From Armatimonadota bacterium (GTDB lineage Bacteria; Armatimonadota; UBA5829; DTLH01), in assembly GCA_038207085.1 (NCBI GenBank), contig JBBRAE010000017.1:1-60344 (forward strand): 60,344 nucleotides of DNA, written 5' to 3'. The notes under the pieces are model-generated. The model was not told the DNA's origin, did no database searches, and saw only the letters and a list, made by a program, of their open reading frames with translations. The position numbers and the translations under genes are program-made. Of this stretch, positions 269-60,344 are shown in pieces; the first letter of the stretch is position 1; each line of letters opens with the position of its first letter.

Positions 269-3200
269 CTAGTTCCCCGTATAGTCATCGAGGTCGTTCA
301 GACCCGAGCCGTAGCCTCTCGGGAAGATGACCGTGTCAGCGCCGTCCTTCACCACAATGCCCATTACTGCAATGTAGTGGCCGACCGTGCCTGCCTGAAT
401 CGGCAGTGGATCGTTCATCCACGTGCCCTGTCCGCGCATCTTCACCTTGAAGTCGCCGGATCCGTCGTTGATGATGTAGTACTCATACGGCCACCGAGCT
501 TTTTCGTCGTCAGTGCCTGTGGTGTTGGGAACAAGAGCTGTTACCTTGCCCCACATCCTGACGAACCTGTCGCGAGCCGAAGGACCAGCCGCGGTAAGCG
601 CCTTGCCGCTGATACCAAGCGGCTTGAGCGGCGTCCCCAGGACCTGATCGTTGATTGAGATCAGCTGAATTACCTTGCGAGCAGGATCAGCCGGGTCGCT
701 TATGATCTTGCCGCTGAAGGTGATCTTCCAACCCACAGGAACCACTATGGTGTTGGCATCTCCAACCAGCTTGAAGGCCTGGCTCCTGTCGTTTGTAGAG
801 ACGTAGATGCTATAGTCCTTGTAGTTGTTTGCAGCCGCGGTAACAGTGAGCGGCGTGAGCATCATTATCGGTGTGCCAACAATGTTGCCAGCGATCTGAG
901 CCTTCAGGTCAGCTGCACTGTTGCACTGAATGATAGTCGTGTTGCGAACGACGCTTCCAGTTATCGCAAGGCTGAGCGGCGGATGCACGTTGGTGCCATG
1001 TCCCGTAGACCACTCGTAACCCGACTGGTAGTCGAAGTCATGCGAGAAGTCGACCACGTCGCCGCTGTTTAGCGGAATAGTCAGATTGAACACCTGCTCT
1101 GCGCCACCTGCCGTGCTGTCGGTGTACCCGGCCGCATTGGTGCCGATAAAGCCTGCGCAGAGCTTCTTTGTAAGGATATTGCCGTTCTTCAGAATAGCGA
1201 ACCCTTGGCTAGTTCCCATCGCATGCTGGTTGAAGACTCGGCAATAGATGTCGTATGCGCCGGTCGCAGGAGTCGTCCAGCGAACCGATGCGATGTCGTT
1301 TATGTTGCCACTTGAAATGAACATGTCATGTGGCTCGATGTAGTTGTACTTGGGATTCGCTCCCCAACCGGTCGCAATGATCGGAGCGTCGGACTCGTTC
1401 TTTCCGATCATAGGACGCCAGAACCCGACGCGTTCCCATCTCGTTGCTGTGGCCTGCGGATTAGACGCGCCGTCGTTAAAGATCGATGTGATCACATAAT
1501 CGAGCAGCCCAAACGTGTTGCTGGTGGCCTGATTGAACGCACCATAGCTCCACTGCCCGTTGGGGTTCACAAGGGTCGTGTAGTCCTGGGACATATCCCA
1601 TGTTCCAAGGTGATGCATAACGATGTCGGCTGCAGTCACAGTCTGGTCGGCAATCGCGGTAACTTCGCCAATTCCCATACCGAAGCCACCCTTGAAGGTC
1701 GTAATCTCATAGTAGCCTGCACCAACGGAAGTCTGGTAGTAACCATCTTTGTCGGTGTAGAGCGTGTAGCCTTCAACCTGGACCCTCGCGTTAGGGATCG
1801 GCGCATTGCCGGGAACGTCCGAGATTACTCTACCCTTGACCAACGTGTTTGACTTGGCAATGGTCAGGTCCATCTGAGTCCAGCCGTCGGTTGCATCCCA
1901 GACCATCGACTCCAGAGTGTCACCGAAATTAAGCGCCATCTCATTATTAGCATACTCAACAGTCGGAGTGCCGAAGCTGTCGGTGTATCCGGCGGCGAAC
2001 GATCCGGCAAATCCGCTTATCGTCGTCTCGCCGACAACATAGGTCACAGTAGGACCGGCTGTCCTTCTGAGGGCAACCTTGGCGGTGGTTCCCCCACTGA
2101 CCTTGGTACCGGACCACTTTGCCGATACCTTGTAAACACCGGCGGTTCCTACGGTGAACTTGGCGATTGTGCGATAGCCGTCCGCGCTCGCCACAACCTT
2201 GCCACTGTCTATAGACTGCGGCGCTACGTTCATCGGCCACTGTGTCGAGTTGCCGGGCAACGCCATGTGCTTGATGAACCCGCTGTATTTGATGCCGTTG
2301 GTGATGTTTGAGAACCACATCGGCGACAGACTAGACAGTCCACCCATCTGGCCGCTGTTGCTGGGGTAAGGGGTAAACCCTTCGCCGGTGGACACGTCAG
2401 AGCCATAGCTCCATGTGGAACCAAGCACAGATACGGGGTTGCCACCTGCCACATACTTGAAGTCAGAGGCAAGATCCCAGCCCATTGAGAGAACCGGGCT
2501 AAGCGTTGTGGCTGCTGTCATGTTCAGGGCTTGGGTCTTGCCCACATATCCCGTCTTGCTGAAGCCAAGCGCCACTATGCCTCGTGAGACCAGAAGGCTG
2601 TAGTTTCCAGCCAAATCAGTAGTGGTTGAGTAGACGCCGTCCACTGATGAGACAACCACGCCCGCAATCGCCGGGTTCGGCGAAGCGGAATCCGTGACTT
2701 TTCCTGAAACAACCACACCGACAGGCAGCGTGTAGTTCTTGTTGGGAGTAAGCGTAGTAAGCGTTATGTTCTCAGTAACTGTCATCGTTTCATAACCGGG
2801 CTTGCTGATCGCGAGGTCGTATGAGCCTGTGCTCGACACAATCAGCGTATAGACGCCGGCGTTGTCCGTGGTGGCAGTCTCAGTGCCGTTAACGTTCTTT
2901 ACCACGGCACCCGCGAGCTTGACGAGGTTGCTGTCCTGCACGTAGCCGGTGATTCCAATGGCGCCGGTCTTGATGGTCGCGTCCAATCGGATGCGGTCGG
3001 TAGAATCGGTGCCCTGGGTGATGAAGTCGATATACTCACCCGCCTGCATCTGCACGACATACTTGTTCAGGGTGAGCACACCGGCACCGCTAGCGAGTGT
3101 CGAATAGCTCGATCCGGCGTTCTTCACGACAGCGGAATAGCCGGTAGCAATGTTAGTGATGTTGCTGGTCGATGTGATGTTGTAGTAGTCAGGGGCAGGG

Positions 3201-4393
3201 GCGACCCAGCGCACGACTACGCTGTCGGATGTACCGGGCTTGGAGCCAAACTCCTGCCAGTTAAGTAGGTCAACCCACGTGCCTCTGGGGTTGAAGATGA
3301 TCGACGGATAAGGCGCAGGGTTCGGAGCCGCAACTATCGAGTTGCCCCACACCTGCAGGCTGCCCGAGCTGTCACCGCAGAGCGATGTGGCAGTGAAGGG
3401 CACGAAGTTGTAGCCGCTCACAGCCTTACCTGAGTAGGAGCCATATTTCCACTGGCCGTTGGGGTTGCCGAGTGGCAATTTGGCGCCGCTGACGCTGGCG
3501 AAAATGTAGTCGGCTTTCATGGCCCACGTTCCAGTATGCTGGAGCGTGAACGATCCGACGTTGGTGCCGCCTGTGGTGAGATCCGCCGTGGTCACACTCC
3601 GTTGGGTATAACCGGACTTGCCCAAAGTAAGTGTGTGGACCCCGGGGAACATGACCATACTGAAGTCGCCGTTCTGGTTGGTAACGGCGCTGTAGTTGTT
3701 ATCGGTGACGGTTACACCAGACAGACCGACGTTATTTGCGTCTACTACTCGTCCGGTCTGGAACCAGTTGCCGTCCATGAACGTCACAAAAAAGTTATGG
3801 TAAGCCCAGTTATTACCTTTGCCGACCGCGAAGTCGTAGATGTCACCCGCACTTGGAGTAACCACCGCCGCGCAGCTCACTGAGCCAGGGGTGGCGCCAC
3901 TGACCAACTGCGTCGTCGTTCCTGATACAATACGGTTGACAACAACGGTGGCGCCTTCGGTGGCCTGGAACCGCGCGAGCACTGTATAAGTGCCGGATGT
4001 TCCAGCAGGGGCAGTCCATCTAAGGATGCTCCATTCAATCATACTAGGAGGCATCATACACATTTGGTTTGCGAAGATGCGACCGACTGTCCAACCGCTG
4101 TTCTTGCAGATCATCGGGTATGGCACGTTTTCCCCCGCGCCTCCGACGCCGTTATTGTTGTGCCACGCAAACACGCTGCTGGGAGGGTAGCCATCGCTGG
4201 CGGTAAACCGGGCAAACGTGTAGCTCCCGGTGAGGCTCGCGTTCGCGCTCATGCCGTATTCCCACCCACGGTTCCCCTGGGTGGTGCTTGAAAAATCTGT
4301 GTAGGCGTCCCAAGTGTCGGCTGCGCACGATGCGGCCAACATGAAACAGGTCGCCAAGATGAGCATTGCCCAAAACAGGGTCTTCTTAGTCAT
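269..4393 (-). CDS. Large secreted multidomain surface protein (~1374 aa): four W-x-x-x-x-D-[FY]...W-x-YG beta-rich repeats alternating with carboxypeptidase-regulatory-like (Ig-like) domains, plus a ~220-aa C-terminal module
   Basis: Long ORF; start moved to ATG 4393 (MTKKTLFWAML..., signal peptide) behind RBS AAAGGAG; repeated G-x-V-x-D...TD-x-x-G-x-Y...K-x-G[YF] motifs. Confidence 0.9.
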   Translation of the reverse strand: MTKKTLFWAMLILATCFMLAASCAADTWDAYTDFSSTTQGNRGWEYGMSANASLTGSYTFARFTASDGYPPSSVFAWHNNNGVGGAGENVPYPMICKNSGWTVGRIFANQMCMMPPSMIEWSILRWTAPAGTSGTYTVLARFQATEGATVVVNRIVSGTTTQLVSGATPGSVSCAAVVTPSAGDIYDFAVGKGNNWAYHNFFVTFMDGNWFQTGRVVDANNVGLSGVTVTDNNYSAVTNQNGDFSMVMFPGVHTLTLGKSGYTQRSVTTADLTTGGTNVGSFTLQHTGTWAMKADYIFASVSGAKLPLGNPNGQWKYGSYSGKAVSGYNFVPFTATSLCGDSSGSLQVWGNSIVAAPNPAPYPSIIFNPRGTWVDLLNWQEFGSKPGTSDSVVVRWVAPAPDYYNITSTSNITNIATGYSAVVKNAGSSYSTLASGAGVLTLNKYVVQMQAGEYIDFITQGTDSTDRIRLDATIKTGAIGITGYVQDSNLVKLAGAVVKNVNGTETATTDNAGVYTLIVSSTGSYDLAISKPGYETMTVTENITLTTLTPNKNYTLPVGVVVSGKVTDSASPNPAIAGVVVSSVDGVYSTTTDLAGNYSLLVSRGIVALGFSKTGYVGKTQALNMTAATTLSPVLSMGWDLASDFKYVAGGNPVSVLGSTWSYGSDVSTGEGFTPYPSNSGQMGGLSSLSPMWFSNITNGIKYSGFIKHMALPGNSTQWPMNVAPQSIDSGKVVASADGYRTIAKFTVGTAGVYKVSAKWSGTKVSGGTTAKVALRRTAGPTVTYVVGETTISGFAGSFAAGYTDSFGTPTVEYANNEMALNFGDTLESMVWDATDGWTQMDLTIAKSNTLVKGRVISDVPGNAPIPNARVQVEGYTLYTDKDGYYQTSVGAGYYEITTFKGGFGMGIGEVTAIADQTVTAADIVMHHLGTWDMSQDYTTLVNPNGQWSYGAFNQATSNTFGLLDYVITSIFNDGASNPQATATRWERVGFWRPMIGKNESDAPIIATGWGANPKYNYIEPHDMFISSGNINDIASVRWTTPATGAYDIYCRVFNQHAMGTSQGFAILKNGNILTKKLCAGFIGTNAAGYTDSTAGGAEQVFNLTIPLNSGDVVDFSHDFDYQSGYEWSTGHGTNVHPPLSLAITGSVVRNTTIIQCNSAADLKAQIAGNIVGTPIMMLTPLTVTAAANNYKDYSIYVSTNDRSQAFKLVGDANTIVVPVGWKITFSGKIISDPADPARKVIQLISINDQVLGTPLKPLGISGKALTAAGPSARDRFVRMWGKVTALVPNTTGTDDEKARWPYEYYIINDGSGDFKVKMRGQGTWMNDPLPIQAGTVGHYIAVMGIVVKDGADTVIFPRGYGSGLNDLDDYTGN

Positions 4394-4936
4394 CTCAATA
4401 CTGCTCCTTTCATCTCCCAATGAGTTGTATTTGCCACCGTGCTTGGGAGTGACCACACGGCAACACATTGAAGTCCACTAAAACTACAAAATCGACTTGA
4501 CTAACTGACTCTCACCTCCCGAGATGCCAACGATGGCATTGGTATTAGGAAAAAACCCAGCCAGAGCTACAGGCAAGGGTCTATCGGTTGAACTCTTCTT
4601 CACTATGCCATGTCCAAGCGCCATTGTCAATACCATTCTTCAGATTGTTTTTTTGCCTGATTATGTCAATTGACGTTATGGCTTACTGCTGTAGAATCAG
4701 CACTACTCCGCCACAGTATCTACAGCATATACTCAGAAACGAACGAAACAATAAAGTATTGAGGTGTATAGGCTATTGGAGTCCCGATGACATTAGCGTG
4801 ATAAGCTATTCTGATGCTTGGGCTCTCGGTTTGTTGAGCTGAAGCTCCAAGCGACAGCACTCTCGGCAGAGAGTGCGATAGCCGCCGATCATGGGGCTTC
4901 GGCCCAGAACTGCGAGGGCCGAAGCATCAAAAGAGG

Positions 4937-12256: not shown

Positions 12257-15019
12257 TTACCTGCCTCTATTGGGCCGTTTGATTATGTTCTGCGCTGTCT
12301 GATCCGTGGTGAACCTAAGCGCCATGCCGTTTGCAAGTGTCGCTCTGTTGATCGAGAACAGGCACGCGGACTTGCCGAGGTCGTCCTCGATCCCTACCGT
12401 CGCGCTCCGACCTGCTCCATAGACCAGGTTCGACGCGGCTACTTCCTGATACTGGATGATGATATCGTTCGAACCCTCGCAGAGCATCGCCTGGAAGCTG
12501 AACTTAGCAGTCGATGCGAAGTACTGCGGCACTCCCACCCAGCTTACCACGAACCGGCGGTTCGGCGCCGATCCAATCGTCCCATACCGAATAGTCCCGG
12601 ACGGCGGGTTGAGATCATCCCAGAGCGGGCAGATCACCGCGTTCGGGGTCGAGAGGTATGGCAGAGTCGTGTTGTTCGGGGTGGACATCCCTGTCCCAAG
12701 GAACCCGATCAGCCCGTTTGAGCCGACATAGACCTTGGTATAGGACTTGCCGTAAAACCCGAAGGTAAACGGAATCGCAAGCGCGTAGCTCACGGAGTCG
12801 TCCGATAGGTATGCCCTGGTGTGAGTGCTCGAATCGACCCAGCTGTAACCTGTCTGGACCACTTTGTAACTCCCAGAAGGAGGGGGGGAAGTGGTGGTCA
12901 CAGACAGGCTGACAGGTCTGGTAGCGCTGCCCGCGCCGTTGGTGGCGTTGGTGAAGCTGACCGTGTCCGAATAGCTTCCGGCGGCGAGAGATGCAGCCGC
13001 GGAGTTGATCGACACAGTCACCGTCGCGCTTGCTCCGGCGTTGAGCGTTCCGCCAGAGCTTGAGATCGTGACCCAGGGCTGGGTGTTGGCGGCGGTCCAG
13101 GAGATCACTGTGCCGCCGGTGTTCTTCAGTGTAAACGACAGAGCCGACGAGCTAAACGGTCCGCCGACGCCGCCTGAGGAGGCAAGTCCGGTCGACGGAG
13201 TGACCGTGAGGTTCCCGGCGGTCGGCGTCGGGTTGACGGTGAGCGACAGGTTTCGGGTCGTGCTTCCTACGCCGTTTGTGGTGTTTGTGAAGCTGACCGT
13301 GCCCGTGTAGCTTCCCGCCGCAAACGAGTTTGCTTCGGCGCCGAGGGAAACCGTGACCGTTGCGTTTGCTCCGGCCTGAAGGGTCCCGGATGTCGCCGAG
13401 AGCCCAGCCCAGGTCGCCGAGGAGTTGGCCGTCCAAGAGACGTCTGCATTACCGGTGTTTGTCAGCGTGTAAGTCGCGCTTGTGGGCGAGAACGGACCGC
13501 CGATCTGGCCCGAAGCGCTCATGCCGGTTGTCGGGGTGACCGAAAGCGCGCCCGTGGCTGGAGGAGGAGTCCCCCCACCCTGCCGCGCAAACGCCTTCAG
13601 GCAGACATTGGTGTTAGCGTAACTCGAAGCTACATCAGTCCAAGTGCTGCCACTGCTGCTCATATAGCTCTGGCCAGTCGAAGCTGTCGCATAGCTCGCG
13701 AAGCCGCCCATCGGCTTCTCAAGCGGGATCGGGTAGCCGTATCCCGGGGTAGTCACTTTGACCACCACAGAGAACTTCTGGCCCGCGGTTACGGCGACGG
13801 GGGTATCGAGCGCTACGGTATGGTACCCCGCAGTCTCAATAACGCCAGTCTTGATCGCGACAGGCCCAGAAGAGCTCACCGGACCACTGGTAGGGTTCAG
13901 GTAGACGCGAAGCTCGTAGCTTGCGTTGTTGGAAGATGCGTAGAGTCCCGCAGCGGAGATGTTCGAGCTTGTTGTTGCCGTAAAGACGTTCGCAAACCAC
14001 GCGGTGTTGTTGCCATATCCTGTGCTCGTGACCCAGCCGAGGGTGTCGTACTGGTAGACCTGATCGTAGCTTGGGGTCGACTGGGCGATGAACGCCGCGT
14101 TTGATATCCCAAGCTTTGAGTCATAGTAGGACATATAGAAGTATCCGGACTGGCCCCAGTAGCTGCCCCAACTGTTGCGCATGATAAACGCGCCGTTGGC
14201 GGGTGCGGGGGTTCGGAACTTGTTGCGGTCAAAATTGTCGTCCCAGCCCACGATACAGACCGCGTGGTTGCCCTGCGATGTGCCGTTGTAGTAGTAGGCG
14301 TAGGTTGAGCTGTTGTAGTAGGTGTCGTTGTGATAATAGGAGGTGTACACCGCTCCATAGGCCATAACGGCCTGCTTCAGGGCATCGTTATCGAGCGAAC
14401 CTGTGCGGTCGGCGATAAAGACGACATCCTGAATGTGCCGGGCCGAGGGGAGTCCCTGCGGGGAGGCGCAGCTTCCTGCGTTGTAGGGGTCGGCCGATTC
14501 GCTCACGGCACCTGCCCATCTCGCGAGGTACGCGGTGGACATCGTTCTGTTGCCGCCTGAACAGCAGGATAGGTCGAAGCCTGCCAGGTTCTTCAGGTTA
14601 TTCTCCGAGCCGTCGAAACTGTCGTTGGGCATCATGGAAGACTCAAGCGATCCAAACGTCGCAAAGCTCCAGCAACTTCCGCACGAGCCCTGGTTTCTGA
14701 CAGCGGTCAGTTTGCCGAGAGTGCGCAGATCGTAGAAAGTGGGGAGTGAGAGAATTTCCAGGGAGCTTGTGCTCGGCCCGCTCGACAGGTGGCTGAGGTC
14801 GATAGTCTCGGGAATGAGTCCTGAGACGGGCTCACCGATCGGCAGGTTGTTCGTCGAATAAACAGGCTGTTCAAGATACTGTAAGAATGCCGGGTTGACC
14901 GGCGCGAGCATCGGGGTCTCCGAGTCCTGCGCCATCAAAGGCATCCCTGAAGAAAGGACCAAAGCAGCAAACAAGCCGATAACGGCAGCCGCTCTGGTCA
15001 AGTAGGCGTTTGTAATCAT
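12257..15019 (-). CDS. Secreted papain-family (C1A) cysteine protease with a lectin-like domain, two BACON-like repeats and a C-terminal NIDO-like domain
   Basis: QGSCGSCWSF, NHAVCIVGWDD, RNSWG catalytic motifs; two L-x-VTP...GGPFS...TL-x-NTG repeats; IPFTFGFYG...PLWDDL tail; signal peptide. Confidence 0.9.
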   Translation of the reverse strand: MITNAYLTRAAAVIGLFAALVLSSGMPLMAQDSETPMLAPVNPAFLQYLEQPVYSTNNLPIGEPVSGLIPETIDLSHLSSGPSTSSLEILSLPTFYDLRTLGKLTAVRNQGSCGSCWSFATFGSLESSMMPNDSFDGSENNLKNLAGFDLSCCSGGNRTMSTAYLARWAGAVSESADPYNAGSCASPQGLPSARHIQDVVFIADRTGSLDNDALKQAVMAYGAVYTSYYHNDTYYNSSTYAYYYNGTSQGNHAVCIVGWDDNFDRNKFRTPAPANGAFIMRNSWGSYWGQSGYFYMSYYDSKLGISNAAFIAQSTPSYDQVYQYDTLGWVTSTGYGNNTAWFANVFTATTSSNISAAGLYASSNNASYELRVYLNPTSGPVSSSGPVAIKTGVIETAGYHTVALDTPVAVTAGQKFSVVVKVTTPGYGYPIPLEKPMGGFASYATASTGQSYMSSSGSTWTDVASSYANTNVCLKAFARQGGGTPPPATGALSVTPTTGMSASGQIGGPFSPTSATYTLTNTGNADVSWTANSSATWAGLSATSGTLQAGANATVTVSLGAEANSFAAGSYTGTVSFTNTTNGVGSTTRNLSLTVNPTPTAGNLTVTPSTGLASSGGVGGPFSSSALSFTLKNTGGTVISWTAANTQPWVTISSSGGTLNAGASATVTVSINSAAASLAAGSYSDTVSFTNATNGAGSATRPVSLSVTTTSPPPSGSYKVVQTGYSWVDSSTHTRAYLSDDSVSYALAIPFTFGFYGKSYTKVYVGSNGLIGFLGTGMSTPNNTTLPYLSTPNAVICPLWDDLNPPSGTIRYGTIGSAPNRRFVVSWVGVPQYFASTAKFSFQAMLCEGSNDIIIQYQEVAASNLVYGAGRSATVGIEDDLGKSACLFSINRATLANGMALRFTTDQTAQNIIKRPNRGR

Positions 15020-16136: not shown

Positions 16137-17096
16137 ATGAATAAGAGGATAGTCTGCTGGCTTGCAATGGGAATGCTGGCAGCGGCGCTTCTTGCATCGG
16201 GAGTCGCGGCTCAGACCGAGATTGTCCCGGACGCCGGAGTGCGCGGGAGTGGTGTGGTCATGTTCACAGCTACCCAGAGCATGGCACAGTTCGATGTCAA
16301 TGTCACCCGTGTGGGGACGAATCTTTTCGGTGGACTGAAGTGGGTTGAGGCTGTTCCATCATCCACAACTGCAAACACAACCAGACCGAACGTCGTCGTC
16401 ACCAAAGAGGTGAAGTCGCTCCGATTCCTCGCCGCCAACCACATCGTTGTCGAAGCGGTCGGCTACTGGAACGACAGGCTCTCGAACATCAGGTTCGAAG
16501 CGCTCGACGACCTCGCCGGTGACTTCGTGCACGTCACCGCAACGACCATCGTGCCGACTGGCTCACGTATGCCTACAATGATCTATGACAAGTCAGGTGG
16601 AGTCGCCAAGGGCAACGTAGCCGTCTTCGGCAAGCCACTTTCGGGCAATTTCTCTAAGGGAAGCGGCACGATCTCGGTCTCAAGCACCCTCCCGCTGATC
16701 GGTCAGTTCAACTTCAGCGCGCAGTCGGCCCCGTCCGGGACCTCCGGCGTGCTGCAGTACGCTGTGATCAACCCGCTCGCGATGTCTCCGATCATCAGGC
16801 CTGCGATTATGATCCAGGTGCGCAAGTTCAATGTGCTCAAGGTCGACGGCAACACCGCGATCATGGTCGGCCCCGGCACGCTTAACGGCGTCGCCGCTAG
16901 GATCACCCTGGCCGTAAGCGACAACTACAAGCCAGGCACGCAGACTGCGACGGGCTTCGCTCCGGCTGCGGACACATTCAAGATCGAGGCAGTGCCGACA
17001 GCGATCAGCTCTTCGGTTAAGCCTTACGCCGCCTCCGGCCCGCTCACCAAGGGCGATTTGGTCGTGGGTGAGATCCAGATATCAGCAACTAAATAA
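16137..17096 (+). CDS. Secreted protein with two tandem beta-rich domains resembling post-COAP-1
   Basis: Signal peptide; AAGGAGG RBS; internal duplication (GSGVV..FDVN..GGVAKGNV / GSGTI..FNFS..GPLTKGDL). Confidence 0.8.
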   Translation: MNKRIVCWLAMGMLAAALLASGVAAQTEIVPDAGVRGSGVVMFTATQSMAQFDVNVTRVGTNLFGGLKWVEAVPSSTTANTTRPNVVVTKEVKSLRFLAANHIVVEAVGYWNDRLSNIRFEALDDLAGDFVHVTATTIVPTGSRMPTMIYDKSGGVAKGNVAVFGKPLSGNFSKGSGTISVSSTLPLIGQFNFSAQSAPSGTSGVLQYAVINPLAMSPIIRPAIMIQVRKFNVLKVDGNTAIMVGPGTLNGVAARITLAVSDNYKPGTQTATGFAPAADTFKIEAVPTAISSSVKPYAASGPLTKGDLVVGEIQISATK

Positions 17097-17104
17097 GTGA
17101 CACA

Positions 17105-17314
17105 TTGTGGGCGGTGGACAGGAGCGGAGCCAAAGCCGGTTGGGATGACCAACGCGACGGCTCGGGGGTGCGCGTCAAATGCATGCTTCCGGCGGGAGTG
17201 TCGGCGCCTTCGGGGTTCGCTCGGGTAACTGGGATAAGTTCATGTGAGGACGACGGATCCGGGAACCTGCTTCGACTGCTTCGGGTGAGGGACGGTGGGG
17301 ATATCAACCAGTAA
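17105..17314 (+). pseudogene. Orphan remnant of the shared C-terminal module
   Basis: DGSGVRVKC...P...VTGISSCE...RLLRVR..DI aligns with the last ~50 aa of the 58606 and 269 proteins; no RBS or signal peptide. Confidence 0.6.
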
Positions 17315-17337: not shown

Positions 17338-17374
17338 AAACGGCCCTCGGCAGATAGTCGCCGAGGGCCGTTTT
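17338..17374. terminator. Bidirectional terminator
   Basis: AAA-CGGCCCTCGGC-loop-GCCGAGGGCCG-TTTT between convergent genes. Confidence 0.8.
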
Positions 17375-17390: not shown

Positions 17391-18050
17391 TTACTTTCGT
17401 CTGCGGGCGATCACCGCGAGCGGTCCGGCTGCGGCCAGGAGGCCGAGGAGCGCAGAGGGCTCGGGAGTGGTTGGCGAACCGGGAACTCCCGGGGCCCAGG
17501 CCACCGCATCGGCGGTACCGTGGTCGATTGCAAACATCCGTCCTGCCACAGGAGCGCCCTTTGATACGACGTAGTATGTGACGGTGTGCTCACCGGCTAG
17601 CACATAGGTTAAGTGGTCCGTATACTTGCAGGAGTAAAACCCGCCTGCTTCGGCGTCATAGGTGATCGTGTAGCCTTCCGTGACAGACTGGACAGGAAGC
17701 TTGCCTCCGGTGAGGAACCCTATCGGCGAGTTTGCGTTCAGATATCCGAACTGGCTTGGGTTGTAGACCTCGGAAAACCCGAAGACTTCAAGCACGGATT
17801 TGCCTGAGTTCTCCGCCTGATAGAGATAGAGATACTCCCCACTCGACAGACTGAACGCCTGGCTGGCAAATGTGCCGGTGAATGTGTTGTTGTAGTTGTA
17901 GTTGCTGGTGATCAACGCTCCGGCGACGCTGTTTGCGCCGAACGAAGCAAAATCACTGCCGACGAAACTGGTGACGTTCTGCGGCACTGCCAAGGCGGCA
18001 GCGGCAGATGCGAGCGCAAGCCCGCACACAAATGCATAACGAATCTTCAT
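17391..18050 (-). CDS. PEP-CTERM sorting-domain protein
   Basis: Signal peptide; C-terminus TPEPSALLGLLAAAGPLAVIARRRK. Confidence 0.9.
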   Translation of the reverse strand: MKIRYAFVCGLALASAAAALAVPQNVTSFVGSDFASFGANSVAGALITSNYNYNNTFTGTFASQAFSLSSGEYLYLYQAENSGKSVLEVFGFSEVYNPSQFGYLNANSPIGFLTGGKLPVQSVTEGYTITYDAEAGGFYSCKYTDHLTYVLAGEHTVTYYVVSKGAPVAGRMFAIDHGTADAVAWAPGVPGSPTTPEPSALLGLLAAAGPLAVIARRRK

Positions 18051-54180: not shown

Positions 54181-57100
54181 TTATCCCGCGGTCAGGCGGA
54201 ACTGCCGCAGGTCGTGCTTCTTGATCGGGAAGCTGAACTTATTCCCATCGACTGCAATCTGCTCGCCGGTCTCCATATCGACGACTTTGAAGCCGCCGGT
54301 GAAGCCTGCTACGGAGTTATCTACCTCGAAGGTCACTTCAGTGTCACCCTCGGCGTAGTTCGTCGCGGCGAGAATCGCTTCCTTGCCCGCTCGGACGTAC
54401 TGGACCGTCTGGACGGCGGGGTCGCTCGCCCTGATCGGCTGCGGGCGGTCGTCCCAGTAGCGGTAGGCGACACAGTCAGGCTCCTGCACAATGTCGCAGA
54501 TCGGCATTCGGAGCTTGTAGTGCAGCATATTTTCGTAGGTGTCGCCCTCGGGGAGCGGCTCCATGTGCCAGAAGTAGCGGTCGATGATAAGCTCGTTCAC
54601 GGTGCAGACCGCGTGCTGGGTGCGCACACACCAGTCCTCGAACTTGCGCTTGCCGTTGTCGTGGAGCATAATCGGCCAGACGCCTGCGTGCTCGCCGTTT
54701 GAGACGCCGAGCAGATACTCGCGGCTGAAGCGGTCGTGAACATCACCCTCAGAGAACTTCCACTCCCAGTCATACTGCACGGTGTAGAAGGCGTTGATCG
54801 GCAGGACCTGCGTGGTCGACATGTGGTTCATGTTGATCGGCAGCATCCCACGCTCGTTCATGTAGATGAACGTCCTCTTGGCAAGCTCGCGCAGGCCCCA
54901 GATGCCTGTAGAGGGCATAACAGAGCCGTCTTCGGTTTTGTAGGCTGCGGTCATCTCGGTGTTGTTTGTCGCGCAGAAGTAGTTGTTGTCGACGTAGACG
55001 CCGGTGTTCCCGGCAACATCGAAGCTCTTGCCATACCAGTAGAGCGCGTAATCGAGATAAGAGTCACTCGGAGTGATCCTGATCTCATGCGGCGCGCGCC
55101 CCGCACGATAGTTGAACTCATCCATCCCCCACTCGTCTGCAAATGTATGCCACTCATCATAGACTGGTGAGCTTGAGCGGTCGTAGTAGAAGATCATTGT
55201 CGTGCCGAACCGGTTGCGCATGTTCTTTGGGGCAATGAGCTCCCACTCTTCCAGATGGTTGTCCCAACCGTAGGGCTCGAAGTGCTTGCGTCCGTATTTG
55301 ACGAACTCGTCGACCTCGGAGTCGGAAAGCCTTTCGGTGTTGGCGCGCTTGATCATCTCCCAGAGGTGCATGTCTTTGTTCGCAGGGAAGACCGAACCAC
55401 AGATGCCGAGGGCGAACCAGTGACGGTCGCAGCCGAGGATACTGTAGTTCTTGGTGTACCACTTGTGCCTCCAACCATCGAGCATCGGTTTGACCGGCGC
55501 TCCCTGCATGCCGAAGGTGATTGTGCGCGGCGAGTCGATAGCTACAGGCTTGTTCACGAGGTGGACGATCACCGAAACCGTGCCGTCGGCCTTGCGGACA
55601 ACGTCCAGGTTCGGTTTTTCGCGGTCCCAGCTCCACCCCTGATCGTTTTCGGTGAACCAGCAGAGCCCCCGGCGCGGGTCGCCGATGAATATATAGCTGC
55701 AGAAGTTCTTCGGGAAGTCGACCGACATCAGCTCTGAGGCCGACCAGACAACGCCCTGACCATCAGGCAACTTGGCTGTGACTACGGGATAGCGCACACC
55801 GTCGGACATCGCGTGAAGGATGTCGGCGAACTCTCCCTTGAGGGGAATCTCAAGGTCAAGTGAGTCGAGGCTCGCCGCGTCCTTGGACGAAATGGTGAGG
55901 TCGACCCGCAGCAAACCGTCGTAATCAAGCGTGGACTTGGTCGCAAGCTCGACTGAGCCGATCTTGGCAGTGCTCTCGGCGATGAGAACATCATCGGCGG
56001 CGCTTGTGATCTTGACCTCTGCCGCCTCAACAGGCGCATCTTTGCCGTTTACCCTGGCGAAGTAGTTCATCGGCCCTGCTAGCACGTCTTTGCTCGCGAT
56101 CCCCTGCTGATCGGTCGTTCGAACGGCGTCAAGGAGGCCCAGCGAGTTCAGATCATACTCTTTGAGGACCGTGTGAAGCGTCTTCCCATCGACCTTGATC
56201 GGGGTAAAGGGCGCGTAGACCTCGCGGCTTGTGCCGAGGCCGAGGTGCTCCCACTCATAGGTGTGGCGCTCGAACGGCTTTGCGACCACATCGGCGGGCC
56301 ACCCCTCGCCCTTGGGCTCCGCGCTTATCGTGTAAAGCCCCGAAAGCGCCGGGACCTCGAACTCCATCTCGTGCGTCGTTCCAGCAAACTCCGACGCCTG
56401 CATCCGAATGCTTGCTACAACCTCGTCGCTCTCTTTGGGTCGAATTACAAAATCGATATAATCGAGCTTCGCATCTTCAGGAAGGTCGGATATATCCGCG
56501 CGGACCTTCATCTTGTTGTAGTAGGGATAGTAGGCAAAGTTGAAGTCCACAGGGAACACTTCACGCTCGACGGTTTCCCAACGGGGATCGCGAGGGGCGC
56601 CCCAGGCATAGTGGCGGACATACTGAATATCGCCGGTCGCCTTGTCACGCACCATGGCAAACAGCGCAAACTTGTTTGATACCGGGTCGCTGTCTTTCAG
56701 CCGAAGTTCAGCCGTCTCGCCCGGGGCGATGGTGAACACTTCGTCTTCCTGAATCTCGGGCATGAGGTTTCGTTTGAGGAAAAGATGCGCGGAAAGCTCC
56801 AGCGGCTTTGTTCCGGGGTTGTGCATCGAAAGCGTGGCGTTGACGCTTCGGGTGGTAACGTCGGTTGCGTTCTTGACCTGAATGGCCGCCGCGCCGTCCT
56901 CGACAAACTCAAAGAGAATATCTTCCTGTATCTGATAAGACCTGTTTCCCATGCAGGAGAAAGCCCACGGCTGCTTCCAGTTGCGGGTGAGGTTGATCGC
57001 CCACTTGCCTTCGGTGATCTGTCGGCCCTTGACGATGCTTTCGATCGGAATCTCGATCTCACAGTGCCAGAACCCGTCGTGGAAGCCGTGAGCTATCTTG

Positions 57101-57561
57101 TAGTGGCCTTCCCAACCGTACCACTGATCGCGTGGCACGTCGCCCAGCATGTGGGTCTGGTAGGCCGCGTAGCCTATCGAGTTGGCAAGCATCTGGTAGT
57201 TTACGTTCTTGCTCGCGCCTGGGTCCGGGCAGATCCACACTTCAAGCGAGTCATCCCAGATAAGATTGGCAGTGTTGCTCTTTTGATTGGCGGCGATGCT
57301 TCCTTCGGTCGGAAGCTCGGTCATAATCGCCACATAGAAGTGGGTCCTGGTCGCTCCAACGTAAGCGATTGACCTGCGATCTTCAAGCTTGGCTTCGTGC
57401 GAAAAGCCATCGAACCCCGCCGCGACTTTCCACTCCTCGGGGTCGACGAACCCATCGATCGTCGGAGCTTTCTGCATCAGGGGTACACGGTAAACGTCGT
57501 CAAACGTATAATCGGCAAAATGCTGAGGCAGCCCTTCCAGGCTGAGCACCTCACTACTCAT
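54181..57561 (-). CDS. Large putative glycoside hydrolase (1126 aa): N-terminal CBM9-like domain plus a DUF6067-like catalytic region; no signal peptide
   Basis: APTIDG.VD..EW, WDDSLEVWI, W..EI.IP; DYDG, RGLCWFTEND..W, GVYVDN. Confidence 0.75.
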   Translation of the reverse strand: MSSEVLSLEGLPQHFADYTFDDVYRVPLMQKAPTIDGFVDPEEWKVAAGFDGFSHEAKLEDRRSIAYVGATRTHFYVAIMTELPTEGSIAANQKSNTANLIWDDSLEVWICPDPGASKNVNYQMLANSIGYAAYQTHMLGDVPRDQWYGWEGHYKIAHGFHDGFWHCEIEIPIESIVKGRQITEGKWAINLTRNWKQPWAFSCMGNRSYQIQEDILFEFVEDGAAAIQVKNATDVTTRSVNATLSMHNPGTKPLELSAHLFLKRNLMPEIQEDEVFTIAPGETAELRLKDSDPVSNKFALFAMVRDKATGDIQYVRHYAWGAPRDPRWETVEREVFPVDFNFAYYPYYNKMKVRADISDLPEDAKLDYIDFVIRPKESDEVVASIRMQASEFAGTTHEMEFEVPALSGLYTISAEPKGEGWPADVVAKPFERHTYEWEHLGLGTSREVYAPFTPIKVDGKTLHTVLKEYDLNSLGLLDAVRTTDQQGIASKDVLAGPMNYFARVNGKDAPVEAAEVKITSAADDVLIAESTAKIGSVELATKSTLDYDGLLRVDLTISSKDAASLDSLDLEIPLKGEFADILHAMSDGVRYPVVTAKLPDGQGVVWSASELMSVDFPKNFCSYIFIGDPRRGLCWFTENDQGWSWDREKPNLDVVRKADGTVSVIVHLVNKPVAIDSPRTITFGMQGAPVKPMLDGWRHKWYTKNYSILGCDRHWFALGICGSVFPANKDMHLWEMIKRANTERLSDSEVDEFVKYGRKHFEPYGWDNHLEEWELIAPKNMRNRFGTTMIFYYDRSSSPVYDEWHTFADEWGMDEFNYRAGRAPHEIRITPSDSYLDYALYWYGKSFDVAGNTGVYVDNNYFCATNNTEMTAAYKTEDGSVMPSTGIWGLRELAKRTFIYMNERGMLPINMNHMSTTQVLPINAFYTVQYDWEWKFSEGDVHDRFSREYLLGVSNGEHAGVWPIMLHDNGKRKFEDWCVRTQHAVCTVNELIIDRYFWHMEPLPEGDTYENMLHYKLRMPICDIVQEPDCVAYRYWDDRPQPIRASDPAVQTVQYVRAGKEAILAATNYAEGDTEVTFEVDNSVAGFTGGFKVVDMETGEQIAVDGNKFSFPIKKHDLRQFRLTAG

Positions 57562-58605: not shown

Positions 58606-60344
58606 CTACTGCAGGTTCTGCGGCGTGCCGACGGCGCGGACAACACGCTGCCAGTTGCCTTCAGAACCCTCAAGACCCGATACCCCATTGATCGCGACCC
58701 ACGCGCCATCATCTGGTGTCTCAATCCCCGTAGTGATGACCTTGAGCCCAAGCGCTGAGCCGTCGCTCAGCGTCATATAAGTCCCGTCCGGGGCTTTATA
58801 AGTGACCCTGCCCCAGACTCTGACAAGAAGCCCCACGTTGTTTGCGCCGAGTGCGCCGGTCACCCCCTGAATGGTACCCGAAGAGGTCGAAACACTCGCC
58901 CCGCCGACTGCGGACGCACCCATTCCGGCAGGCCGGATGCTCCCCCTGTCCCGACAGAGCACTTCCACAGTGCCAGCGTCGATCGCCCACTCCCCAGGGG
59001 ACGCAGAGATGTCTCCCGTTACGTTTATATACGAGCCGGGAGAGGCGGCGGTCTCGGTGTTGATCTTGATCCCCGACCATTTCCCGGGCCGCTGGGCGTA
59101 GATGAACCCGGTGAAGTTCCCCGTAACGACAAGGCCATCGAGATCGACAGGGAAGCCGACGGACTGGCGCTTGGCCCACGTGCAGGGGTCCTGAGTGGCC
59201 AGGCTCGTATGGAGAATCGTCCCATACTCACCGACAGCCCACGCCGTATCCGAGTCCACTGCGCAGATGCCGTAGAGTTTGTTTGTAGTTCCGGAAGAAA
59301 GAAGTGTCCAGGTCGCCCCGCCGTTGGTGGTCTTCAGCAATACGCCGTTGTCCCCACAAACCCAGCCTGTATTCACGTCGATGAACCGCACAGAACGCAG
59401 CTCAACACTCACACCCGACTGCTGGAAGGACCACGTATCGCCTCCATTTGTGGTCTTTAAAATCGTGCCTTCGCCGCCGACCGCCCAACCCGTGTTTGCA
59501 TTGACAAGGCATACGGACCAAAGCGTGCCGGTTGTGCCGGAGTCGACCAGTATCCACTCCGACAACTCAGGGCAATACTTTAGAACCGTGCCGTTCTCGC
59601 CGACGATCAACCCCGCGTTTGCTCCCGCAAAGGACACGTCGTGAAGGGCACTTGTGGTGGGTGACTGGCGCACGGTCCAAGCCTCCCCCGCCCCCGACTT
59701 GCCCACGATCGTCCCAGCCATTCCGACGGCCCATCCGGTGTCAGAACTTGTCATACAGAGGCCGAATAGAGTAGTCGTCACATCGCTCGTCTCCGTGCTC
59801 CATGTCAGGGCGTCGTCGGTGCTTCGGTAGACCACCCCCGTACCCGATGCCGATATGCCGAGCGCATAAACGTTTCCGCCGCCCGCGAACTGCACAGCGG
59901 TGAGGCCGTTGGAAGCACCCACCGGCCTTCCAGTGCCCAGGAGCTGCCACTGCACTCCACCGTCCGTCGTGCGCGCCACCCTGCCAGTGTCGTTCACCGC
60001 ACAGCCGACGCCCTGCGGCGTCATCGCAACGGCGTTGAATAGCCCGTAGTTGGTAAACGGCAAGACGCTTGTCCACAACGAACCGGCGTCGCTTGAACAA
60101 AGACAGGCCCCGCCGTCTCCGACCATACACAAGTTCTTGGAGTCAAGCGCTCTAATCGCCCGCAGGTTCGTTACAATCGGCCCTGCTACGGGAGTCGACC
60201 ACGACCCTCCGCCGGTGGTCGTCTTGGAAGTCTTTCCTCCTGCGCCGACAACCCAGCCCGTGGTCTTGTTAGGTAGAAACGTGACGGCGTAAAGGTTCGG
60301 ACTCGATGAAACGGCGGATACAGCCCAGGTGGCACCGCCGTTGG
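58606..60344 (-). CDS. YCF48/BNR-repeat beta-propeller protein with the shared C-terminal module; 5' end lies beyond the window
   Basis: Repeated GWAVG..G.ILKTTNGG.TW; frame stays open to the window edge (NGGATW... from 60342). Confidence 0.88.
   Translation of the reverse strand, partial: NGGATWAVSAVSSSPNLYAVTFLPNKTTGWVVGAGGKTSKTTTGGGSWSTPVAGPIVTNLRAIRALDSKNLCMVGDGGACLCSSDAGSLWTSVLPFTNYGLFNAVAMTPQGVGCAVNDTGRVARTTDGGVQWQLLGTGRPVGASNGLTAVQFAGGGNVYALGISASGTGVVYRSTDDALTWSTETSDVTTTLFGLCMTSSDTGWAVGMAGTIVGKSGAGEAWTVRQSPTTSALHDVSFAGANAGLIVGENGTVLKYCPELSEWILVDSGTTGTLWSVCLVNANTGWAVGGEGTILKTTNGGDTWSFQQSGVSVELRSVRFIDVNTGWVCGDNGVLLKTTNGGATWTLLSSGTTNKLYGICAVDSDTAWAVGEYGTILHTSLATQDPCTWAKRQSVGFPVDLDGLVVTGNFTGFIYAQRPGKWSGIKINTETAASPGSYINVTGDISASPGEWAIDAGTVEVLCRDRGSIRPAGMGASAVGGASVSTSSGTIQGVTGALGANNVGLLVRVWGRVTYKAPDGTYMTLSDGSALGLKVITTGIETPDDGAWVAINGVSGLEGSEGNWQRVVRAVGTPQNLQ

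Follow-up and report, generated by a model that had tools for sequence, protein, structure and literature searches.

A tandem OB-fold module on unrelated exported proteins from a single class of Armatimonadota, with a possible role in surface retention

We report that two otherwise unrelated proteins encoded in a 60,344-nucleotide stretch of DNA (the window; positions 1 to 60,344 of contig JBBRAE010000017.1, GenBank assembly GCA_038207085.1) from an Armatimonadota bacterium (GTDB lineage Bacteria; Armatimonadota; UBA5829; DTLH01) end in homologous copies, m1 and m2, of a module of approximately 200 residues that is modelled as two oligonucleotide/oligosaccharide-binding (OB) barrels in tandem. 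The module recurs on many exported proteins of the genome, is mostly located at their C-terminus, and within the phylum it is largely confined to the class to which the window belongs, where its presence matches that of exosortase. The restriction to one class, the census of the whole class, the divergent subtype represented by m1 and the co-occurrence with exosortase are new here. Our data suggest that the module may act as a non-covalent address or retention domain through which exported proteins remain on the cell surface or within the extracellular matrix.

The first host protein, an exported repeat protein, corresponds to an open reading frame (ORF) of 1399 codons on the minus strand (269..4468) and combines a signal-peptide-like N-terminus with four CarboxypepD_reg-type repeats, as seen with Pfam and a hydrophobicity scan; it ends in module m1 (272..940, minus strand; hidden Markov model (HMM) envelope 317-940). 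The second, a BNR/YCF48-type beta-propeller protein on the same strand (58606..60342, with the 5' end beyond the window; PSII_BNR E 5.8e-30), ends in m2 (58612..59226, minus strand; HMM envelope 373-577 of 578 residues, E 2.5e-57), which is of the mainstream subtype. The original prediction had recognised in both tails the same ordered series of motifs. Since the pairwise BLASTP similarity is low (best segment 12/36 identities, E 0.007), this motif series needed a profile test. A search of the genome (3.35 Mb, 83 contigs, 57% G+C; 26,303 six-frame ORFs) with m2 as query gave 11 further ORFs at E 2e-13 to 2e-8, while m1 gave one close paralogue on contig C48 (E 1e-87) and, on contig 20, a weak match (E 0.0048) in a module gene with a frameshift. 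A profile was then generated in two rounds using 26 relatives of m2 from its own genome, with m1 and the C48 paralogue left out. This profile scored 52.4 bits against m1 alone and 64.0 bits against the paralogue, and in a search of all ORFs of the genome with filters off it matched m1 at 45.4 bits (E 9.8e-12) and a third, orphan copy elsewhere in the window at E 2.2e-11. In the reverse direction, m1 as sole query matched mainstream modules, at E 2.5e-15 and weaker in related genomes and at E approximately 1e-6 in the present one. As judged from the profile scores and these reverse searches, m1, m2 and the orphan are homologous copies, and m1 is a divergent subtype. Specifically, alignments show that m1 differs from mainstream modules in having a 12-residue insertion in the second barrel and a longer C-terminal end, and that the glycine-rich linker stretch of the mainstream modules is absent from it. 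The closest relatives of m1 among the modules of related genomes are flanked by a beta-helix on one side and a melibiase catalytic domain on the other.

Profile matches at E ≤ 1e-3 comprise 29 ORFs (approximately 24 genes) in this genome, which bears out the expectation of a large paralogous family. The full two-part module is located at the gene end in 18 genes, with 0-19 residues behind it, and is internal in two, in one case between a multicopper-oxidase/fn3 part and a PAP2/vanadium-chloroperoxidase-like part and in the other ahead of a GH123 glycosidase. The first barrel alone forms the tail of three genes (two S8 peptidases and one M6 peptidase), one module gene is split into two ORFs by a frameshift between the barrels (C20:34070-34890), and a 168-residue ORF (C12:72714-73217) comprises just a signal peptide and the second barrel. 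Three of the 29 ORF matches, including the orphan of the window, are fragments, and a 279-residue exported protein on contig C22 is little more than the module. N-termini could be evaluated for 23 ORFs using a hydrophobicity scan rather than a trained predictor: 20 are basic and then hydrophobic (Sec-like), one is twin-arginine and two are neither, i.e. 21 of the 23 carry a signal peptide, as had been expected of the family. The twin-arginine member (Pfam TAT_signal E 2.2e-4) has an aldo/keto reductase body, and a search for module-less orthologues of it gave only paralogues of approximately 30% identity. The bodies are mutually unrelated and include S8 and M6 peptidases, aldo/keto reductase, PQQ propeller, pectate-lyase-like beta-helix, malectin, PKD, laminin-G and BNR; GH123, melibiase, multicopper oxidase and fn3 are further partner domains in this genome, its relatives or the protein-cluster library described below. 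The most conserved positions of the module are the F-Y-x-E-x-x-D-R and G-E-R motifs in barrel 1, P-L-G and G-L-N-N-x-G-L-L-V in the linker, and D-D-G-S-G in barrel 2.

That the module consists of two tandem OB-fold-like units had been guessed from the sequence, and AF2 models, Foldseek and a search of PDB chains agree on it. The AF2 model of m2 (alignment of 19 modules) has a pLDDT of 86.2 and a pTM of 0.82, that of m1 (a second alignment, 25 modules) a pLDDT of 89.5 and a pTM of 0.87, and both are predicted to form two beta-barrels and a linker. In m1 the barrels are placed at approximately 638-871 (OB1) and 281-565 (OB2) with the linker at 566-637, and in m2 at approximately 58954-59151 (OB1) and 58633-58827 (OB2), all on the minus strand. 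The best Foldseek matches are tandem-OB proteins, namely HIN-200 (E 2e-4 to 1e-3, TM 0.33-0.40) and the single-stranded DNA-binding protein of Thermus/Deinococcus. In a second structure search, independent of Foldseek and covering 48,161 PDB chains, the barrels of m2 matched the anticodon domains of AspRS/AsnRS at Z 10.5-11.1 (root-mean-square deviation (rmsd) 1.9-2.5 over 82-86 residues), with each half an OB-fold at Z 10-11; the same anticodon domains matched the m1 model at Z 10.9-11.5 (rmsd 2.5-2.6 over 91-93 residues), its OB2 at Z 11-11.5, and the barrels also match RPA, MCM-N and YgiW (1nnx, Z 9.0-9.6). Each half of the module thus matches solved OB domains at Z 9-11.5 with an rmsd of approximately 2-3 Å over approximately 80-95 residues, i.e. 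it has OB topology. Moreover, the two barrels resemble each other at the profile level (hhalign E 7e-5, probability 63%, 62 columns), which suggests an old duplication within the module.

The original prediction named no characterised function for the module, and in our searches of curated libraries no characterised family matched it. For 19 modules of the genome no Pfam model reached its cut-off, and NCBIfam had nothing relevant for 10 members. The recurrent weak Pfam matches are all to OB families: PF01336 in 4/19 (best E 1.7e-5; cut-off not reached, one member having 18.5 bits against 27), RMI2 in 3/19 and BOF (PF04076) in 2/19 (E 0.015 or worse). When 60 of the 150 best matches in the protein-cluster library were scanned with Pfam, no family covered the module except for one BOF match that passed the cut-off on the first barrel (29.8 against 25.8 bits), and 25 of the 60 had no family at all at E ≤ 1e-5. 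By sequence, a profile search of solved structures in the PDB gave a best E of 0.026. The source names of ten representative clusters read 'hypothetical protein' except one, 'DUF1565 domain-containing protein [Armatimonadota bacterium]', which is named for its body. PF26410, carried by one protein (P0151), probably belongs likewise to the body and not to the module, since two other word-indexed matches hold the module without PF26410. DUF5689 (PF18942), an atlas lead with a low score (0.77), was rejected, having no match at E ≤ 1 in the genome while control genomes were matched, and the sole locus from a scan of species genomes with one module as query, a TPR/histidine-kinase gene of Thermoflexibacter ruber, was a false match. 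A full-text search of the literature on secreted or OB-fold C-terminal domains in Armatimonadota, with subscription journals outside its coverage, found no such module. At the least, the module represents a family unnamed in curated libraries that deserves a Pfam entry in the OB clan.

Known anchors were searched for on the module proteins. Neither host protein has a match at E ≤ 1 to anchor families in Pfam, including SLH and Por_Secre_tail; SLH has no match at E ≤ 0.01 on 20 other module members of the genome; and no module ORF has a PEP-CTERM-like tail according to a crude regular expression. The original prediction had likewise seen no SLH, PEP-CTERM or recognisable type IX secretion system (T9SS) C-terminal domain on the two proteins.

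To estimate the size of the family we searched a protein-cluster library of 1.84 billion representatives, which gave 6836 matches at E ≤ 1e-3, 4741 at E ≤ 1e-10 and 1987 at E ≤ 1e-30. Among the best 150 of the 6836, the module ends 25 residues or less from the protein end in 123, is followed by 26-60 residues in two and by more than 60 in 25, and 26 of these proteins hold two to six full copies; the top of this list favours multi-copy proteins because copy scores add up. The original expectation that the module would always be C-terminal therefore does not hold, neither in the library nor for the two internal cases among the approximately 24 genes of this genome.

The lineage range was measured within Armatimonadota. 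In the order to which the window belongs the module is present in 28/31 genomes, mostly with 28-96 matches each among the matches listed, two genomes having only 4 and 1. A phylum sample of 301 genomes (E ≤ 1e-8) gave 35 positives, 31 of the 34 genomes of the window's own class and 4 of the 267 elsewhere, the latter with one match each. Across the whole class the module was found in 48 of 53 species genomes, and among the 47 positives other than the present genome 44 have 17 to 96 matches (among the matches listed) and three have 1 to 4. The five class genomes without it (three of genus g10 and one each of g22 and g169) are 84-99% complete. With 48/53 genomes in the class against 4/267 in the rest of the phylum sample, the suspected restriction to one lineage is borne out.

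Hand-picked envelope families were tested for the presence/absence pattern of the module. Exosortase (PF09721) is present in 48/48 class genomes with the module and in 0/5 without it. Specifically, among the 31 relatives it is absent from exactly the three g10 genomes, and in the phylum sample the class genomes that lack it are exactly the three without the module; G314, the fifth module-less genome, has no exosortase either, and the nine remaining class genomes all have it. Sortase does not track the module (5/31 relatives, not in this genome). The genomes lacking both module and exosortase (G011, G014 and G029 of g10, G134 and G314) keep polysaccharide export (Poly_export in 4/4 tested) and, in 4/5, secretin, which served as controls. 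In the present genome there are two exosortase genes (C55:9531-11174 and C8:118932-119852), each within an exopolysaccharide locus; these loci hold an EpsE-like exporter, stp1-type glycosyltransferases, a chain-length/tyrosine-kinase protein, a priming glycosyl-phosphotransferase (over cut-off) and EpsI. One of the two exosortases is fused to an EpsI domain, and nearly all related genomes have a pair of exosortases of approximately 300 and 540 residues. PEP-CTERM/exosortase systems have been linked to the production of exopolysaccharide and the formation of flocs or biofilms (PMC1569441, PMC9850573, PMC12188702).

We favour, with a probability of roughly 0.45, the reading that this is a non-covalent address or retention domain, by which exported proteins are held on the cell surface or within the extracellular matrix. 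In this scheme the N-terminal signal peptides would direct the proteins through the inner membrane via Sec or, in one case, Tat, and the tandem OB-fold tail would then bind a ligand common to all module proteins and specific to this class of Armatimonadota. Binding would keep proteases, glycosidases, oxidases, beta-helix and propeller proteins at the surface or in the matrix, the likeliest ligand being the exopolysaccharide or a PEP-CTERM protein matrix from the exosortase loci. The data establish the homology of the copies, their fold and exported context, the copy number, the placement in proteins, the lineage range and the match with exosortase; that the module binds, to which ligand, and that it stays uncleaved are inferences. 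In favour of this reading, two OB barrels represent a classic ligand-binding fold; the context is extracellular, as indicated by the signal peptides and the secreted partner domains; the placement, mostly terminal but also between catalytic domains, with barrels that can occur singly, is that of a binding module; and the arrays of two to six copies suggest avidity for a polymer. The abundance of the module in most positive genomes of the class, its match with exosortase and the exopolysaccharide loci around both exosortase genes also speak for it. A bolder version, rather unlikely in our view, makes the tail the docking half of an undescribed surface-display system in which 17 to approximately 100 secreted enzymes and adhesins per genome would be placed on the exopolysaccharide or PEP-CTERM protein layer that the exosortase loci produce.

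Several observations weigh against retention, in particular against its tie to exosortase. The strong bias to the extreme C-terminus, seen in the 18 genes with 0-19 residues behind the module, is unneeded for a simple binder. Only two or three losses, in related small genomes (2.1-2.9 Mb), underlie the co-occurrence, and S8 peptidases are found in 0/3 g10 genomes against 5 matches in the module-rich G006. Given the few losses and the loss of secreted enzymes, the co-occurrence may reflect a general change of lifestyle, and the gene losses in the small module-less genomes look like such a change. Moreover, exosortase is present in 189/267 genomes of the rest of the phylum sample, where the module is present in only four; one genome outside the class (G101) lacks exosortase and has a single, weak match to the module; and three class genomes have exosortases but just 1-4 module matches. 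In the present genome the module genes are not beside the exosortase loci, and the module lacks PEP-CTERM features, with 0/10 PEP-CTERM-like ORFs (crude pattern) carrying it. With these limits the exosortase link is a lead to the ligand and not evidence of processing by exosortase.

The original prediction had left open whether the tail serves secretion or anchoring; anchoring or retention is favoured here, and a role as a secretion or sorting tag is weakened by the internal and multi-copy modules. Were the tail an export or sorting signal, i.e. a folded domain read by a class-specific outer-membrane translocon or sorting enzyme and maybe then removed, its bias to the extreme C-terminus (18 genes here and 123 of the 150 best library matches), its occurrence, within one lineage, on dozens of exported proteins per genome that have no other relationship, and its tracking of exosortase, a known sorting enzyme family, would all be accounted for. 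We nevertheless consider this quite unlikely. Whole catalytic domains follow the internal copies, and half modules and arrays of up to six copies occur; together these fit ill with a terminal cleaved signal and well with a movable binding module. A PEP motif, a membrane helix and a basic end are all absent from the module, which finishes in a beta-strand and a short polar tail, sortase is too sparsely distributed (see above), and among the hand-picked families no machinery with the narrow range of the module was found.

If a binding module, it could instead target substrates in the manner of a carbohydrate-binding module, recognising an environmental polymer, be it a polysaccharide of plant, algal or microbial origin or extracellular DNA, and so bringing enzymes to food. 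OB stands for oligonucleotide/oligosaccharide binding, the terminal and tandem placement and that between catalytic domains are as in carbohydrate-binding modules, many partners are glycosidases or polysaccharide-lyase-like beta-helices, and the nearest Pfam models are PF01336 and the periplasmic BOF. However, proteases, aldo/keto reductase, oxidases, propellers and adhesin-like repeats share no substrate, and neither the single-class restriction nor the tie to exosortase is expected of a food binder; we regard this alternative as unlikely. As to DNA, the 184 modules for which charge was calculated have a mean net charge of -4 and a median isoelectric point (pI) of 5.1, with a pI above 8 in 13%; this acidic to neutral character makes general binding of DNA or polyanions unlikely despite the nucleic-acid-type fold. 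The least probable of the alternatives, and one we consider very unlikely, is that the tails bind each other or a scaffold to form multi-enzyme surface assemblies, as dockerins and cohesins do. The distribution is dockerin-like (found on many enzymes within a lineage, as a rule at the C-terminus but at times internally), proteins with five or six tandem modules could be scaffolds, and small exported proteins that are nearly module-only exist (the 279-residue C22 and 168-residue C12 proteins), but no partner or scaffold family was found. Nor is there a significant neighbour gene: prepilin-type genes lie within 3 kb of 3/29 module ORFs, a number reached in 9% of shuffles.

The orphan copy lies on the plus strand at 17150..17305, where the profile (positions 144-194) matches approximately 52 residues from the end of the second barrel. 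A third copy of the last part of the module had been suspected here; the homology is confirmed and the matched stretch is confined to these 52 residues. The frame that contains it has 73 codons (17093-17311, plus strand), covers the last quarter of the module and has neither a gene body nor a signal peptide; compared with the end of another module of the genome (C9) it is 44% identical over 52 residues (E 1e-11). Two possible origins were rejected. The orphan is not the tail of the upstream gene for a 319-residue exported protein (16137-17096), since orthologues of the latter in six related genomes have 300-327 residues and no module. In four of five loci read in relatives a gene ending in a first-barrel-only tail adjoins the orthologue of 16137-17096; where complete (three loci) this gene encodes 481-485 residues, lies immediately downstream and is missing from the window, and the orphan does not derive from its tail either (syntenic 481-residue gene, best E 0.62). 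Just 3' of the orphan there is a terminator-like, GC-rich hairpin with a T run (17342..17374, plus strand; by eye, unscored). From its sequence, the orphan is the 3' relic of a lost module gene, and the hairpin reads as the 3' end of that gene. Directly beside the relic, on the minus strand (17391-18050), is the gene for a 219-residue exported protein with a PEP-CTERM-type tail (P-E-P motif, hydrophobic stretch and R-R-R-K end), which has no Pfam match at E ≤ 0.001.

The window also encodes, on the minus strand, a likely exported papain-type (C1) peptidase of 920 residues with lectin-like and BACON domains (12257-15019) and, adjoining the BNR protein, a protein of 1126 residues with a GH123 N-terminal-like region (54181-57561). 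The former has no OB tail, and the latter has no obvious signal peptide or OB tail; in another GH123-like protein of the genome (contig C3) the module is placed ahead of the catalytic part. Elsewhere in the genome, DUF1559-like genes with a prepilin-type N-terminal methylation motif adjoin four module genes (C9:35330-36253, C10:6421-7164, C4:95859-96734 and C1:118027-118512).

The module is present on roughly one of every hundred genes in these genomes. If it is a surface or matrix address tag, a single profile would define the exoproteome of a poorly studied bacterial class, the module would provide a handle for surface display, and, through the match with exosortase within the class, it would be a concrete partner for PEP-CTERM/exosortase-exopolysaccharide systems. 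Should the docking version be true, these systems, the role of which is poorly understood, would gain a second class of clients that exosortase does not cleave, and the OB-fold a new sugar- or protein-binding use.

Among known systems, the C-terminal domain of the T9SS (Por_Secre_tail, Bacteroidota) is similar in being a folded domain on dozens of unrelated signal-peptide proteins of a single lineage, mostly at the extreme C-terminus. It is a beta-sandwich of approximately 80 residues (PMC4804311), whereas the present module is a tandem OB of approximately 200 residues that also occurs internally (25/150) and in arrays (26/150). SprA_N was found in 0/31 related genomes, yet also in 0/14 control genomes, and Por_Secre_tail had no match genome-wide, with the control likewise silent. 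With BOF proteins (PF04076; YgiW, 1nnx) the module shares an exported OB barrel, the first barrel matching 1nnx at Z 9.6 (rmsd 4.0, 86 aligned residues) for m2 and Z 9.0 for m1, but the profile matches YgiW at E 0.11 only, and BOF proteins are small and stand-alone rather than tails of large enzymes. The best structural matches are to nucleic-acid OB domains (PF01336; the anticodon domains of AspRS/AsnRS/LysRS, and RPA), with which it shares the hairpin motif F/Y-x-x-x-D-x-S-G; unlike these it is extracellular, acidic and below the Pfam cut-off. HIN-200 units are the sole solved tandem-OB units that align over both barrels (VIA Z 9.5 over 162 residues, rmsd 5.9, for m1), but the TM-scores given above are low (0.33-0.40), identity is 9-16% and the barrels are packed differently; HIN-200 proteins are eukaryotic cytosolic or nuclear sensors of double-stranded DNA. 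Substrates of exosortase have a C-terminal PEP motif, a membrane helix and a basic end, from which the beta-strand and short polar tail of the module differ; as a linked system, the two have the same presence and absence within the class (48/48 and 0/5) and not outside it. Finally, SLH domains and dockerins act as modular, non-covalent addresses for many exported enzymes; they are as a rule terminal, but movable and sometimes repeated, and it is their way of working that we propose for the present module, which is unrelated to them in sequence and fold.

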